DNA of 64,000 bases from Thermoanaerobaculia bacterium. GTDB lineage: Bacteria > Acidobacteriota > Thermoanaerobaculia > Gp7-AA8. Shown one piece after another: positions 43,360 through 51,870 of this stretch. The stretch covers positions 38,956 through 102,955 of the forward strand of contig JBBRTE010000015.1 of the NCBI GenBank assembly GCA_038244715.1. The letters are read 5' to 3'. The position numbers and the translations under genes were made by a program. The notes under the pieces are model-generated. The model saw only the letters and a list, made by a program, of their open reading frames with translations, was not told the origin of the DNA and ran no database searches. Position 1 is the first letter of the stretch, and the number at the start of each line of letters is the position of its first letter.

Positions 43360-43396
43360 GCGGGCCGGAGCCACCACTCCGGCCCGCATTTTTTTT
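43360..43396. terminator. Bidirectional intrinsic terminator between convergent genes
   Basis: GCGGGCCGGAG-ccaccac-TCCGGCCCGC followed by ATTTTTTTTAA; the tyrS stop codon overlaps the U-run. Confidence 0.6.
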
Positions 43397-44585
43397 AAGC
43401 GAATGCGATTCTGGCGAACCGGCGCTTGCCGACCTTGAGCAGATAGGACTTGCCGGCGCTGGTGTCGAGCGTCGCGCGCGGGTCGCTGACTTTCGCATCG
43501 TCGACGAGCACCCCTCCCTGCGCGATGACGCGCTGCGCGTCTTTGTTCGAATCCGACAGACCCGCCGAAACGATGATCTTCGACAGCAGCTGCGGCTCGC
43601 CCGCGGAGGGAAGCGTGGTCTCCTCGATCTCAGCCGGCGCCTGACGCTCGGTGAACACGCGTCGGAAACCCTCCTCCGCTGCCTCCGCCGCCGCGCCGTC
43701 ATGGAAGTCGCGGATGATCGACTTCGCGAGCTCCCGTTTGGCCTCCATCGGATGCGAGGACGCCTTCCGTGCAGCGATCTCGGCCGGCGTGAGGTCGGTG
43801 CAGAGCGTGTAGTACTTCCACATCAACTCGTCGGAAATCGACATGATCTTGCCGAAGATCGACTGCGGGTCTTCGTGGATGCCGATGTAGTTGCCGAGGG
43901 ATTTGGACATCTTCTCGACGCCGTCGAGGCCTTCCAGGAGTGGCATCGTGATGACGACCTGCGGCTCCAGCTTGTACTCGCGCATCAGATCGCGCCCGAC
44001 CAGCAGATTGAAGAGTTGATCGGTGCCGCCCATCTCCACGTCGGCATTCAATGCGACCGAGTCGTAGCCTTGCGCCAGCGGGTAGAGCAGCTCGTGGATC
44101 GCGATCGGCTGGTGCGCGTCGAACCGTTTGCGGAAGTCGTCACGCTCGAGGATGCGCGCCAGCGTGTACTTCGCCGCCAGCTTGATCATCCCTTCTGCGC
44201 CGAGAGCGCCGAGCCACTCGGAGTTGAAACGGATCTCGGTGGTCTTCGGATCGAGGATCTTGAAGACCTGCTGTTTGTACGTCTCCGCGTTCTGCAGCAC
44301 TTCTTCCTTCGACAGCGCCGGCCGCGTGGCCTTCTTGCCTGTGGGATCGCCGATGAGGCCCGTGAAATCGCCGATCAGAAAGATGACCCGATGCCCGAGC
44401 TGCTGGAAATGCTTCATCTTGCGGATCACGACGGTGTGACCGAGGTGAATATCGGGAGCCGTGGGGTCGAACCCGACCTTGACGGTGAGCGGCTTGCCCC
44501 GGGCGAGCTTCGTCTTCAGGTCGTTGCGATCGATGAAGTCGACCGTCCCCTTGCCGAGGAAGGCGAGTTGTTCGTCGAGAGTCAT
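43395..44585 (-). CDS. tyrS: Tyrosine--tRNA ligase
   Basis: ORF trimmed to ATG 44585 ([10 protein letters not shown]...). HIGH ([10 protein letters not shown]) and KMSKS motifs present. 396 aa. Confidence 0.9.
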
Positions 44586-44683
44586 CGGGGCATTGTAGTT
44601 TGGGGTGTGTTGCCGGGTTGCCGGCCAACCAGGCAACCAGGAATTTGACACCACCACGACACGTCTCTACACTTCGCCACCCG

Positions 44684-44731
44684 ATGAACAGCCTGTTCGC
44701 CCAGCAGCACCACCATCATCACCACACCTAG
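44684..44731 (+). CDS. hisL: his operon leader peptide (6 consecutive His codons)
   Basis: atgaacagcctgttcgcccagcagcaccaccatcatcaccacacctag translates to MNSLFAQQHHHHHHT*; it lies ~100 nt upstream of hisZ and is followed by hairpins and a terminator. Confidence 0.6.
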   Translation: MNSLFAQQHHHHHHT

Positions 44732-44826
44732 GGGCGCGAACCGCCCCGATCGGACAAGGGGCGTTCAGCGAACAACGTAGCCGACTGACAAGACCTCTTC
44801 TCCGGTTTCGAGAATGAGGTTTTTTG
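44732..44826 (+). promoter_or_regulatory. Putative his attenuator: alternative GGGGCG/CGCCCC hairpins plus terminator hairpin with U-tract
   Basis: GGGGCG(44732-37) / CGCCCC(44743-48) / GGGGCG(44759-64) can pair alternately. Terminator CCTCTTCTC-cggtttc-GAGAaTGAGG (44794-44819) is followed by TTTTTT (44820-25). The GAGG of the 3' stem doubles as the RBS for the hisZ ATG at 44832. Confidence 0.5.
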
Positions 44827-44831
44827 ACTTT

Positions 44832-45716
44832 ATGGCCGCGAAATCGAGATACCCCACTGGTGTTCATCCGCTGCTGGTCGAAGAGACCGCGCGGCGGAGG
44901 CGCATCGAAGCCCGCTTCGTCGACACCTTCGAGAAGGCGAGCTTCTCGGAAGTGATCCTGCCCATCATCGACTACGTGGAGCCGTACGCGCCGCTGGTCG
45001 ACAGCGCGGCGGCGAAGCAGAGTTATCGGTTCATCGATCGGGAAGGCGACCTGGTCGCCATCCGTGCCGACTTCACGCCGATGCTCGCACGTGCCCTCTC
45101 CCCCACCCTCGACGCGGGCACGCTCCCGCTCCGCCTCTTCTACCGCGGTGACGTCATCCGCGTGGAAGCGTCACGCCTCGGCACGAACAGGGAGTTGTTC
45201 CAGATTGGCGCGGAGATCGTCGGCGACGACTCGATCGATGCGGACGTGGCGATGCTCCATCTCGCCGCCGAGCTCGGGCGTACCGACGAAAGCGAGCCCG
45301 CGGTGGTCTACAACGATGTCTCCATCGCCACGTCGCTGATCGCACAATCCGACGCCGTCCGCGAAGCACTGGCCGCCAAGCGGATGACCGCGGGCGTTCC
45401 TGCCGCGCTGCGGACCATCGTGGCGAAGCTCATCTCCGGCGAGGCCACGATCGATGACGTCGCGCCGTTCGCACCGGAGGCGGCGGCCAGGCTCTGCGCG
45501 ATCGGCGATGCGCTCGCCAGCGATTCTCTCTTTTCCCTGCACCTCGACGACATCGACGGGAGCGCCGGCTATTACACCGGCCTCCGCTTTCGCGTCTACG
45601 CAGGCCGCGCTCGAGCAAAGGTCGCTCAGGGCGGACGCTACGACACTCTCTACGAACGCTTCGGCCAGCGCGCCGCGGCCATCGGATTCACCTTCACTCT
45701 CGACGACCTGGATTGA
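44832..45716 (+). CDS. hisZ: ATP phosphoribosyltransferase regulatory subunit
   Basis: Class II aaRS-like HisZ (FRYERPQ-type region present as FRVYAGRARAKVAQGGRYD). The track start at 44814 lies inside the terminator stem, so the ATG at 44832 is preferred. Confidence 0.8.
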   Translation: MAAKSRYPTGVHPLLVEETARRRRIEARFVDTFEKASFSEVILPIIDYVEPYAPLVDSAAAKQSYRFIDREGDLVAIRADFTPMLARALSPTLDAGTLPLRLFYRGDVIRVEASRLGTNRELFQIGAEIVGDDSIDADVAMLHLAAELGRTDESEPAVVYNDVSIATSLIAQSDAVREALAAKRMTAGVPAALRTIVAKLISGEATIDDVAPFAPEAAARLCAIGDALASDSLFSLHLDDIDGSAGYYTGLRFRVYAGRARAKVAQGGRYDTLYERFGQRAAAIGFTFTLDDLD

Positions 45717-49810: not shown

Positions 49811-50413
49811 ATGAAAACGATCCTGATCGACTCTCCTGTCGCGAACGTCGCCAACATCGCGCGTGCCTTGCGCACGGCCGGGGCGGATCTCGACGTCACG
49901 CGCGACGCCAACGCCATCGCGCGCGCGCGAAAGCTCGTGCTGCCCGGCGTCGGTTCGTTCGCCGCGGCCATGCGCTGGCTGACCGAGAACCGGATCGATG
50001 GTGCCATTCGTGACGCCGTTTCCAGCGGTGCCGCGCTGCTTGGTGTTTGCGTCGGTCACCAACTTCTCTTCGACCTCTCGCATGAGATGGGCACCACGCC
50101 CGGGCTCGGCCTGCTGCGCGGAGAGGTGCGCAAGTTCGAGGGTGCGCTGCCCATCCCGCAGATTGGATGGAATCGGGTGACGGCCGCGGGTGATGCGGAG
50201 CAGGGACTCTTCGGCGGCGTCGCCGATCAGTCGTTCTACTTCGTCAACTCCTATGCAGCCGTCGACGCACCCGACGAGATCGCGCGTGCGGATTACGGCG
50301 GTTTCTTCACCGCCGCCGTGCAGCATGAGCGCGTCTTCGGTGTGCAGTTTCATCCCGAGAAATCGTCGCGGGCGGGGTTGCGCGTCCTGAGGAACTTCAT
50401 CGCATGGACGTAA
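49811..50413 (+). CDS. hisH: Imidazole glycerol phosphate synthase, glutamine amidotransferase subunit
   Basis: ATG 49811 (MKTILIDSPVANVANIARAL...). LLGVCVGHQLL with catalytic Cys; ...VQFHPEKS. Confidence 0.9.
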   Translation: MKTILIDSPVANVANIARALRTAGADLDVTRDANAIARARKLVLPGVGSFAAAMRWLTENRIDGAIRDAVSSGAALLGVCVGHQLLFDLSHEMGTTPGLGLLRGEVRKFEGALPIPQIGWNRVTAAGDAEQGLFGGVADQSFYFVNSYAAVDAPDEIARADYGGFFTAAVQHERVFGVQFHPEKSSRAGLRVLRNFIAWT

Positions 50414-51870
50414 TTCCCTCGCTCGACCTCCTCGGCGGTCAGGTGGTCCGGCTCCTTCACGGCGACTTCGCGAAGGTAACGCCGTACGGTGATCCGCAAC
50501 GAGTGCTCGACACTTTGAACGTCCCCCGGGGATCGCGTCTCCACGTCGTCGATCTCGAGGCCTCGCGAAGCGGACGGCCGGTGGAAACAGAGATCGTGCG
50601 GCGGCTGGCGACGCGCGGTCTGCGCATCCAGGCCGGCGGCGGGATTCGATCGCTGGCCGATGCACGCGCCTGGATCGATGCCGGTGCGGAGAAAGTCGTC
50701 ATCGGCACCGTCGCCGCGGATTCACCCGACGTCCTGCGCAGCATCGTCGATGCGTTGGGAGCCCGGCGCGTCGTCGCCGCGATCGACGTCCGCGACGGCA
50801 TCGTGCGTGTCGCAGGATGGGAGCGCGATGCGACCTCGTCGCTCAGTGAAGTACTGGAACGCGTCGAAGCGCTCGGAATCGCCGAGGCGTTGATCACGGA
50901 CATCCGCAAGGACGGTGCGATGCGTGGCCCGTCGTTCGCGCTCTACCGCGCGCTCCGCACCGGGCTCTCCATCATCGCCTCGGGCGGAGTGTCGACGGTC
51001 AGCGATGTGGTCTCGCTCAGCCGGATCCCTGCCGTCGGCGCGTGCGTCATCGGCCGCGCTCTGCTCGACGGCCGAGTGTCGCTCGCCGAGACGCAGGCGC
51101 GCGTGGCGACGACGAACCGCATTCCTGAACGCATCATCCCCTGTCTCGACGTGCGCGACGGACGGGTCGTGAAAGGCGTGAACTTCGTCGACATCCGCGA
51201 CGCTGGCGACCCGGTCGAGTGCGCGGTGCGCTACGAAGCGGAAGGCGCCGACGAACTGGTCATCCTCGACATCTCGGCCACCGACGCGAATCGCTCGACC
51301 GCGCTCGACATCGTCCGGCGCGTCTCGGAATCGCTCTTCATTCCTCTGACGGTGGGCGGCGGCGTGCGGTCGATCGAAGACTTTCGCGCTCTGCTGCGGG
51401 CCGGGGCGGATCGGGTGGCGATCAACACCGCTGCCATCCGGAATCCGCAAATCATCGCAGATTGTGCGACCGAGTTCGGCGTCCAGGCCGTGGTGCTGTC
51501 GTGCGACGCGAAACTCGTCGACGGACGGTTCGAAGCCATGGTCCGCGGCGGCAAAGAGTCGTCGGGTGTGGATGCCATCGAATGGTGCCGGCGCGCCGAG
51601 GAGCTGGGGACGGGCGAGATCCTGCTCACGTCGGTCGATCGCGACGGCACGAACAGCGGCTACGACATTCCGCTGCTGCGCGCGGTGACCAGTTTCGTGA
51701 AGATCGGCGTCATCGCGTCGGGCGGCGCTGGGAGCGTGGACGACTTTCGCGATGCCATCGAAGCCGGCGGCGCCCGCGCGGTGCTGGCCGCATCACTGTT
51801 TCACGATCGGCGTCTCTCGATCGGTGACGTCAAACAATTTCTGCAACAGGAAGGGATACCGGTTCGATGA
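50404..51870 (+). CDS. hisA-hisF: Fused HisA-HisF: ProFAR isomerase (N-terminal) fused to imidazole glycerol phosphate synthase cyclase subunit (C-terminal)
   Basis: Single uninterrupted 488-aa ORF. Residues ~1-235 [17 protein letters not shown]...[17 protein letters not shown] (HisA). Linker [13 protein letters not shown]. Residues ~250-488 [19 protein letters not shown]...[12 protein letters not shown] (HisF). Confidence 0.85.

Follow-up and report, generated by a model that had tools for sequence, protein, structure and literature searches.

We analysed a 64,000-nucleotide (nt) stretch of genomic DNA, called the window below, from a bacterium of the Thermoanaerobaculia in the phylum Acidobacteriota, which carries an operon for histidine biosynthesis (his). 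Our subject is the region directly upstream of hisZ, the first gene of that operon, where a short open reading frame (ORF) rich in His codons is followed by RNA segments able to pair in alternative ways and by a predicted intrinsic terminator. A preliminary description, made from the letters of the window, had proposed that this region attenuates transcription in the enterobacterial manner. The features on which the argument depends are the following, where naked RNA means untranslated RNA and MFE stands for minimum free energy.

44645-44673, plus strand: sigma-70-type promoter from the promoter scan, with -35 TTGACA (44645-50), a 17-bp spacer and -10 TACACT (44668-73)
44684-44731, plus strand: leader ORF MNSLFAQQHHHHHHT and its TAG stop, read from the window sequence, the ORF being kept in relatives
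44694-44700, plus strand: 5' strand of helix P0, UGUUCGC, in leader codons 4-6, pairing with 44768-44774 (naked MFE fold and duplex test)
44707-44714, plus strand: segment A, GCACCACC, at the beginning of the His run, able to pair with B (naked MFE fold of the window)
44708-44725, plus strand: six tandem His codons (CAC CAC CAT CAT CAC CAC), the proposed stall site
44731-44736, plus strand: segment B, GGGGCG, opening with the G that ends the TAG stop
44742-44747, plus strand: segment C, CGCCCC, partner of either B or D
44748-44763, plus strand: segment D, GAUCGGAcAAGGGGCG, whose GGGGCG pairs with C and whose GAUCGGA and AAGGGG pair with E
44768-44774, plus strand: GCGAACA, the 3' strand of P0, just after segment D
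44794-44807, plus strand: segment E, the terminator 5' arm CCUCUUCUC (44794-802) and the loop bases CGGUU, which also pair with D
44810-44825, plus strand: segment F, the terminator 3' arm GAGAAuGAGG (44810-19) and the U6 tract (44820-25)
44832-45716, plus strand: hisZ, 294 amino acids (aa), first gene of the operon, matching TIGR00443 (hisZ_biosyn_reg)

A leader ORF with tandem His codons precedes hisZ

The leader ORF begins with the ATG at 44684 and ends with the TAG at 44729-31. Its product, MNSLFAQQHHHHHHT, is encoded by 15 codons, which read ATG AAC AGC CTG TTC GCC CAG CAG, the six His codons and ACC before the TAG, and the stop codon is separated from the hisZ ATG (44832) by 100 nt. The preliminary description of a 15-codon ORF with six consecutive CAC or CAT codons, 100 nt before hisZ, is thus borne out by the window sequence. 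Six consecutive CAY codons occur only once in the 64 kb, both strands included, and in none of 100 dinucleotide-preserving shuffles of the window. The leader ORF with its His run is real and non-random.

The closest relatives of the HisZ protein (78-93% identity) come from soil and permafrost metagenomes, and the named ones belong to metagenome-assembled genomes (MAGs) of Thermoanaerobaculia or Acidobacteriota. We scanned genomes, one per species, and obtained 30 evaluable Thermoanaerobaculia loci, with HisZ at 53-84% identity, together with two loci from other phyla at 30% identity. A His-rich in-frame ORF of 12-22 codons, with 4-8 His, lies upstream of hisZ in all 30 Thermoanaerobaculia loci, at a distance of about 100-130 nt (150 nt in L020). 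In each of the 30 its stop codon, UAG in 29, is fused to GGGGUGC, and there follow GCGCCCC, GGGGCGC and, with a U tract after it, the hairpin CCUCUUCUCC...GGGGAAGAGG. When 31 loci are compared, the stop codon overlaps segment B in 30. The two loci of other phyla (30% identity) do not have this design. Metagenome contigs were scanned for the motif as well, which gave 120 matches; 15 of these had in-frame His codons before the TAG, and 105 were chance matches devoid of His codons. All 15 genuine loci carry the leader and the RNA segments; the 14 with enough downstream sequence all precede hisZ homologues (53-86% identity), and the scan found the motif before no gene other than hisZ. Since the upstream neighbour varies between loci, the element travels with hisZ. 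The search for the leader in related genomes therefore gave the leader peptide and the RNA segments upstream of hisZ in 30 of 30 genomes and on 15 metagenome contigs. Six of the chance-match contigs (L062, L065, L082, L142, L145, L151) share the context CCN CAT TAG GGGTGC (..VPH*GGC), which suggests another conserved element that happens to contain the search pattern.

Three comparative signs indicate that the leader ORF is translated. Among the related loci, the His codons differ by a third-position C or U or by a single-base change to CAG, CGC or CUC (Gln, Arg, Leu); insertions and deletions within the leader comprise whole codons only; and the reading frame of the start codon is preserved in leaders of at least seven different lengths. 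Outside the His run, both the sequence and the length of the peptide (12-22 aa) vary among the relatives.

The promoter upstream of the leader agrees with the consensus at 10 of 12 positions (TTGACA-17-TAcACT), a score for which 0.1 occurrences are expected in shuffles. TTGACA-17/18-TA(C/A/G)ACT recurs in about 25 of the 31 loci, several further loci have weaker versions, and no recognisable promoter of the TTGACA-17/18 type was seen in L022, L023, L028 and L030. The leader AUG follows the -10 hexamer by 10 nt in the window and by 7-13 nt, with a mode of 10, in the 31 loci. As this conserved consensus promoter ends 10 nt before the AUG, transcription would start upstream of the His codons. No motif resembling a Shine-Dalgarno (SD) sequence precedes the leader start in any locus examined. 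The proximity of the AUG to the -10 hexamer, together with the lack of an SD motif, leads us to predict that the leader mRNA is probably leaderless or nearly so. If the start site, placed from promoter geometry alone, is taken to lie about 7 nt past the hexamer, the 5' untranslated region (UTR) would measure 0-6 nt.

The predicted terminator and its competitor

The predicted terminator combines a stem of 9 bp (44794-44802 with 44810-44819) with a loop of 7 nt (CGGUUUC) and is followed by U6, and the E:F hairpin has an energy of -13.6 kcal/mol in the window. These dimensions are those first described; the hairpin had also been called clean, which it is not, since U44815 is bulged. A simple consensus terminator scan did not list the his hairpin, a miss that we attribute to the bulge and to the AU-rich inner stem. 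A crude search of the whole window for terminators before genes returned only coding-sequence-like hairpins and missed the his terminator as well, so it is uninformative about other attenuators in the window. Across the alignment the E:F hairpin is 91% paired, with five of 11 pairs changed on both sides, and at least four U directly follow the stem in 29 of 31 loci. The hisZ ribosome-binding site (RBS) probably also lies in this hairpin, on its 3' arm, in line with the earlier proposal: the GAGG at 44816-19, within the F arm, is the sole SD-like element before the hisZ AUG, and the U tract ends 6 nt before that AUG. With the GAGG in this position, the terminator hairpin would mask the RBS and the antiterminator would expose it. 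F is single-stranded in the MFE structure of the window in the antiterminator state.

Between the leader stop and the terminator lie GGGGCG (44731-36), CGCCCC (44742-47) and a third segment of this kind, GGGGCG, at 44758-63 within D. Segment C can pair with B or with D, as the preliminary description had stated, and the two alternative hairpins are nearly equal in energy (-10.7 and -11.5 kcal/mol). The actual antiterminator, D:E, had escaped that description. It was found by folding transcripts that end before the terminator 3' arm: GAUCGGAcAAGGGG (44748-61, D and bases before it) pairs with CCUCUUcUCCGGUU (44794-807, the terminator 5' arm and loop), and in the window the duplex has an energy of -17.1 kcal/mol. 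Because the GGGG of D is common to both, C:D and D:E are mutually exclusive, and D:E pairing in turn excludes E:F.

Comparison of the relatives supports this pairing in several ways. Over 22 distinct sequences, cognate D/E duplexes average -16.2 kcal/mol against -13.8 (standard deviation, sd, 0.5) for permuted partners, and none of 10,000 permutations reaches the observed mean. In alignment A3, which consists of anchored blocks, six of the 13 D:E pairs are changed on both sides, for example from G-C to A-U and from A-U to G-C at columns 25-48 and 26-47. A full MAFFT alignment misaligned the variable linker, and RNAalifold run on it gave only B:C and the terminator. The combined structure B:C and D:E is 88.6% paired, against 48-62% when the partners are slid by 1-3 columns, and the covariation score of the antiterminator state is 0.185 against 0.129 (sd 0.009) in shuffles. 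In L018, L024 and L030, CUCC of E has become CCUC or CCUG and GGAcAAGGGG of D has become AGGAAGGGG, with F the same; that D follows E while F is unchanged argues for selection on D:E itself. Further metagenome variants keep D:E, at -10 to -19 kcal/mol. The alternative structure that folding was expected to reveal is therefore present, with compensatory changes, and this link to the terminator, together with the conservation in relatives, supports the original proposal of ribosome-mediated his attenuation.

Pairing within the leader

B:C positions are 98.8% paired across 24 distinct sequences. In most relatives, the MFE fold of the 5' part of the RNA joins the beginning of the His run (GCACCaCC) to B (GGGGUGC). 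Opposite C, the U in B is limited to a G-U wobble; opposite the His run it finds a pairing partner in the A of a CAC codon, so that A:B accounts for its conservation. Inside this helix, most relatives have a hairpin in which His codons pair with the codons just after them (CAUCAC...GUGAUG). In L009, L010 and L037, CAUCGC/GCGAUG replaces CAUCAC/GUGAUG, a compensatory double change at the cost of one His, which becomes Arg. The residues after the His run in such leaders (VM, SMI, LV, PV, LMT) follow from codons complementary to CAY, so that RNA pairing would dictate them. In the L001-L030 leaders (e.g. L001:1017-1073), these post-His codons read GUG AUG, UCG AUG AUC, CUG GUG or CCG GUG. The inner hairpin is absent from the window and from six close relatives, whose leaders end in HHT, HHI or HHS.

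A long-range helix, P0, joins leader codons 4-6 to the bases just 3' of D. For P0, the mean duplex energy is -12.0 kcal/mol with cognate and -9.9 (sd 0.4) with permuted partners, none of 10,000 permutations reaching the observed value; compensatory variants include CGUCGC:GCGACG, and the helix occupies the same positions in L001-L030. The MFE structure of the untranslated window RNA holds P0 together with A:B, C:D and E:F. P0 may keep untranslated RNA in the terminating conformation and might also account for the conserved leader residues N-F-A. Untranslated RNA truncated after D has B paired to upstream bases, and also contains C:D, in about 25 of 31 sequences. A switch of five segments without A:B, in which untranslated RNA would be read through, was considered and dropped, because B pairs with the His-codon region in untranslated RNA.

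Switching in silico and proposed mechanism

To place a translating ribosome on the RNA, we masked as its footprint the nucleotides from -15 to +12 relative to the first base of the codon in the A site. With the ribosome at the stop codon, where it covers B, the window RNA folds into C:D and E:F with a terminator probability of 0.96. With the ribosome at His1-4, B is free, B:C and D:E form, and the terminator probability falls to 0.02-0.04; at His5-6, where the ribosome reaches into B, the terminator returns (0.94-0.95). The energies of the three states of the window RNA (-25.8, -26.6 and -26.2) differ by less than 1 kcal/mol. When transcripts that end before F are compared over the sequences, E is clearly more paired with a His-stalled ribosome than with a stop-codon ribosome in about one third, and never clearly less.

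In the his attenuator of Salmonella, six segments pair either as A:B, C:D and E:F or as B:C and D:E, the first set being both the terminating one and the default of untranslated RNA (PMC4046918). The layout upstream of hisZ agrees with this scheme. We consider it likely that the region described here attenuates transcription of the hisZGDCBH(AF)(IE) operon in response to histidine, by way of a translating ribosome, and that this attenuator is conserved in Thermoanaerobaculia. Transcription would begin a few nucleotides before the leader AUG, and a ribosome would translate the 15-codon leader while RNA polymerase makes the downstream segments. When His-tRNA is ample, the ribosome would get to the UAG and cover B with its footprint. 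C would then pair with D, leaving E free, and the E:F hairpin with its U tract would terminate transcription while also hiding the probable hisZ RBS. When His-tRNA is scarce, the ribosome would stall on the early His codons, occupying A and leaving B free. B would take C as soon as C emerges, before D exists, so that D stays unpaired; D would then pair with E before F is made, which would block the terminator and expose F. Untranslated RNA would adopt A:B, C:D and E:F, aided by P0, and terminate by default. A fuller proposal, to which we give even odds, is that the element, present across the sampled Thermoanaerobaculia, is an independently evolved his attenuator on a leaderless or near-leaderless transcript, which combines the six-segment logic of Salmonella with a P0 lock, post-His codons selected for complementarity to the His codons and an RBS coupled to the terminator arm. 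Under this joint proposal, RNA structure would dictate the C-terminus of the leader peptide, and a single hairpin would couple transcriptional to translational control.

Several observations weigh against the attenuator as we propose it. In full-length equilibrium folds, most relatives adopt the terminator wherever the ribosome is placed, and many of them have a C:D helix of greater stability than B:C. B:C and C:D are 97-99% paired and near-invariant, hence compatible with pairing but devoid of covariation. A:B is weak in the window (GCaCCaCC, 44707-14, with GGGGcGC, B not being GGGGUGC there), and the 5' part of the window RNA has a z-score of 0.1. The U tracts of L024 and L026 are weak, the 12 nt between the GAGG and the hisZ AUG are long for an SD element, and the 5' UTR that promoter geometry gives for the window, about 3 nt, would make its mRNA not strictly leaderless. 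The duplex permutation tests take no account of phylogeny, and the host organisms are known from MAGs only. As the equilibrium folds of the relatives do not discriminate between ribosome positions, the model has to call, like the classical attenuators, on the order of co-transcriptional folding, which, like the histidine response, we infer. Since attenuators act kinetically, we take the equilibrium result as a limit and not as evidence against the model.

The strongest competitor, which we nevertheless hold to be unlikely, is control of translation only: E:F would sequester the hisZ RBS without terminating transcription, and leader translation, or stalling on the leader, would set the exposure of the GAGG. 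The sole SD-like element does lie in the F arm, with the U tract ending 6 nt before the AUG; F is single-stranded in the antiterminator state; and attenuators that sequester an RBS without termination have been described (PMC9413887). However, a run of at least four U after the stem, kept in 29 of 31 loci, would be needless for such a sequestrator, and an intrinsic terminator would have a stem of this length and GC content and a loop of this size. Sequestration and termination are moreover compatible, so that the former is more likely an added layer than an alternative.

Two further explanations do without a ribosome that senses histidine on the leader. A sensor acting in trans, either by a T-box-like contact with uncharged tRNA-His or through an RNA-binding protein, would make the His run an RNA element; his genes of Firmicutes and Actinobacteria are indeed regulated by His T-boxes (PMC9413887), and a conserved hairpin takes in the region of the His codons. 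We regard this as very improbable. In Rfam searches, neither His_leader nor T-box nor any further family was hit within 44300-45100 at E<=10, and none reached the gathering score in the 64-kb window or in 18 related loci. A His T-box leader was rejected on this absence of a T-box model match in the window and the 18 loci. Besides, the CAY run always lies in frame between a start and a stop across whole-codon insertions and deletions, its variation is mainly synonymous at third positions, and a stop codon that overlaps B in 30 of 31 loci makes sense only with a translating ribosome. A shade less probable still is a functional His-rich micropeptide, for instance a metal-binding one, next to which the terminator would be incidental. 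His-rich peptides do bind metals and the ORF is conserved, but the peptide varies in sequence and in length (12-22 aa) outside the His run, its post-His residues are set by RNA pairing through codons complementary to the His codons, and the ORF lies directly upstream of hisZ at every locus found.

Relation to known attenuators

The attenuator proposed here shares much with the enterobacterial hisL leader: an ORF of 15-16 codons with 6-7 tandem His codons, whose end is some 100 nt away from the first his gene; six segments that pair in alternation, A being located in the His codons and B beside the stop, and E:F forming a U-tailed terminator; and termination by default, as predicted for untranslated RNA. 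Unlike hisL, it precedes hisZ, of a short-form HisG system, instead of a long-form hisG, and it occurs in the Acidobacteriota. Its leader ORF lacks an SD motif, the start lying about 10 nt past the -10 hexamer; the 3' arm of its terminator probably serves the first gene as RBS too; and it has the extra long-range helix P0. The term enterobacterial-style, used in the preliminary description, is therefore apt for the logic of the switch but not for its sequence, which has no similarity to the Rfam His_leader, nor for its leader ORF without an SD motif. Homology to the enterobacterial leader (His_leader, RF00514) was rejected for lack of a covariance-model match in the window and in 18 related loci, and an origin independent of the enterobacterial his attenuator is likely.

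That description also overstated the novelty of the arrangement. His leader peptides before hisZ have been predicted in the Bacillus cereus group, in C. difficile and in other Firmicutes (PMC2965389, PMC4833913, PMC9413887), and Firmicutes His leaders are also predicted in Peptostreptococcaceae and Erysipelotrichales (PMC2965389, PMC9413887, PMC4833913). Like the element described here, the Firmicutes leaders have an ORF with His codons (3-5 in their case), terminator and antiterminator hairpins and an operon led by hisZ, all outside the Proteobacteria. Both are computational predictions, and the Firmicutes ones were deemed independently evolved by their authors. Compared by description, the Firmicutes leaders differ in belonging to another phylum with low-GC genomes, and no leaderless start is described for them. 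A conference paper that searched Actinobacteria for His leader peptides is cited in PMC4833913. Short leaderless ORFs are also known: 14 leaderless leader-peptide attenuators were predicted in Deinococcus deserti (PMC4007540), and leaderless polycysteine short ORFs occur in mycobacteria (bioRxiv 10.1101/834739). With these, our leader shares the lack of an SD motif, and it would share a short ORF at or near the 5' end of the transcript and the control of downstream amino-acid genes. The Deinococcus and mycobacterial cases have mapped transcription starts, whereas ours is deduced from promoter geometry alone; those cases lie in different phyla, involve different amino acids and include no reported histidine example. 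Full-text literature searches found no his attenuator for Acidobacteria or Thermoanaerobaculia.

We therefore regard the element as a new, lineage-specific example of a known control mechanism and not as a new mechanism, and the understanding of attenuation itself is unchanged. It adds a predicted amino-acid attenuator with good comparative support in the Acidobacteriota. As another likely convergent his attenuator, it bears on how readily leader-peptide switches arise. For annotators, it provides a defined motif, absent from Rfam, which explains a conserved stretch of about 190 nt, from promoter to hisZ, in many MAGs from soil and permafrost. With its consensus sigma-70 promoter and small size, the element would be easy to test in vitro or in E. 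coli.

The his operon and its neighbourhood

The HisZ protein matches TIGR00443 with E = 8.7e-49 and a score of 166.3 bits, below the curated cut-off of 271.65. Its homologues begin with MAAKSRYP, which sets the start codon at 44832. Another ATG, at 44814-44816, lies in frame with hisZ inside the terminator 3' arm and is specific to the window, the relatives having GGGGAAGAGG there; as it is absent from them and the homologues begin with MAAKSRYP, it is not the hisZ start, and gene callers could mis-annotate it as such. On the other side of the leader, tyrS (tyrosine--tRNA ligase; 43395-44585, minus strand) is divergent from it across an intergenic region of about 100 bp. The same neighbour is apparently present in L003 and L005, as judged only from an identical upstream start sequence, and is not found in most other loci. 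No tRNA genes were found in the 64-kb window.

The operon has the order hisZ-hisG (short form)-hisD-hisC-(hisB)-hisH-fused hisA-hisF-hisIE. The order hisZG-DCBH-AF-IE first given agrees with this, except that hisB is deduced from the hisC-hisH gap alone. HisA and HisF are encoded by one ORF of 488 aa at 50404-51870 (plus strand), HisA-like over residues 1-234 and HisF-like over residues 241-488. A single-frame hisA-hisF fusion is also found in the metagenome loci L058 (87% identity), L097 (72%) and L051 (72%), three related loci, so that the fusion is a real feature of the lineage and not a sequencing error.

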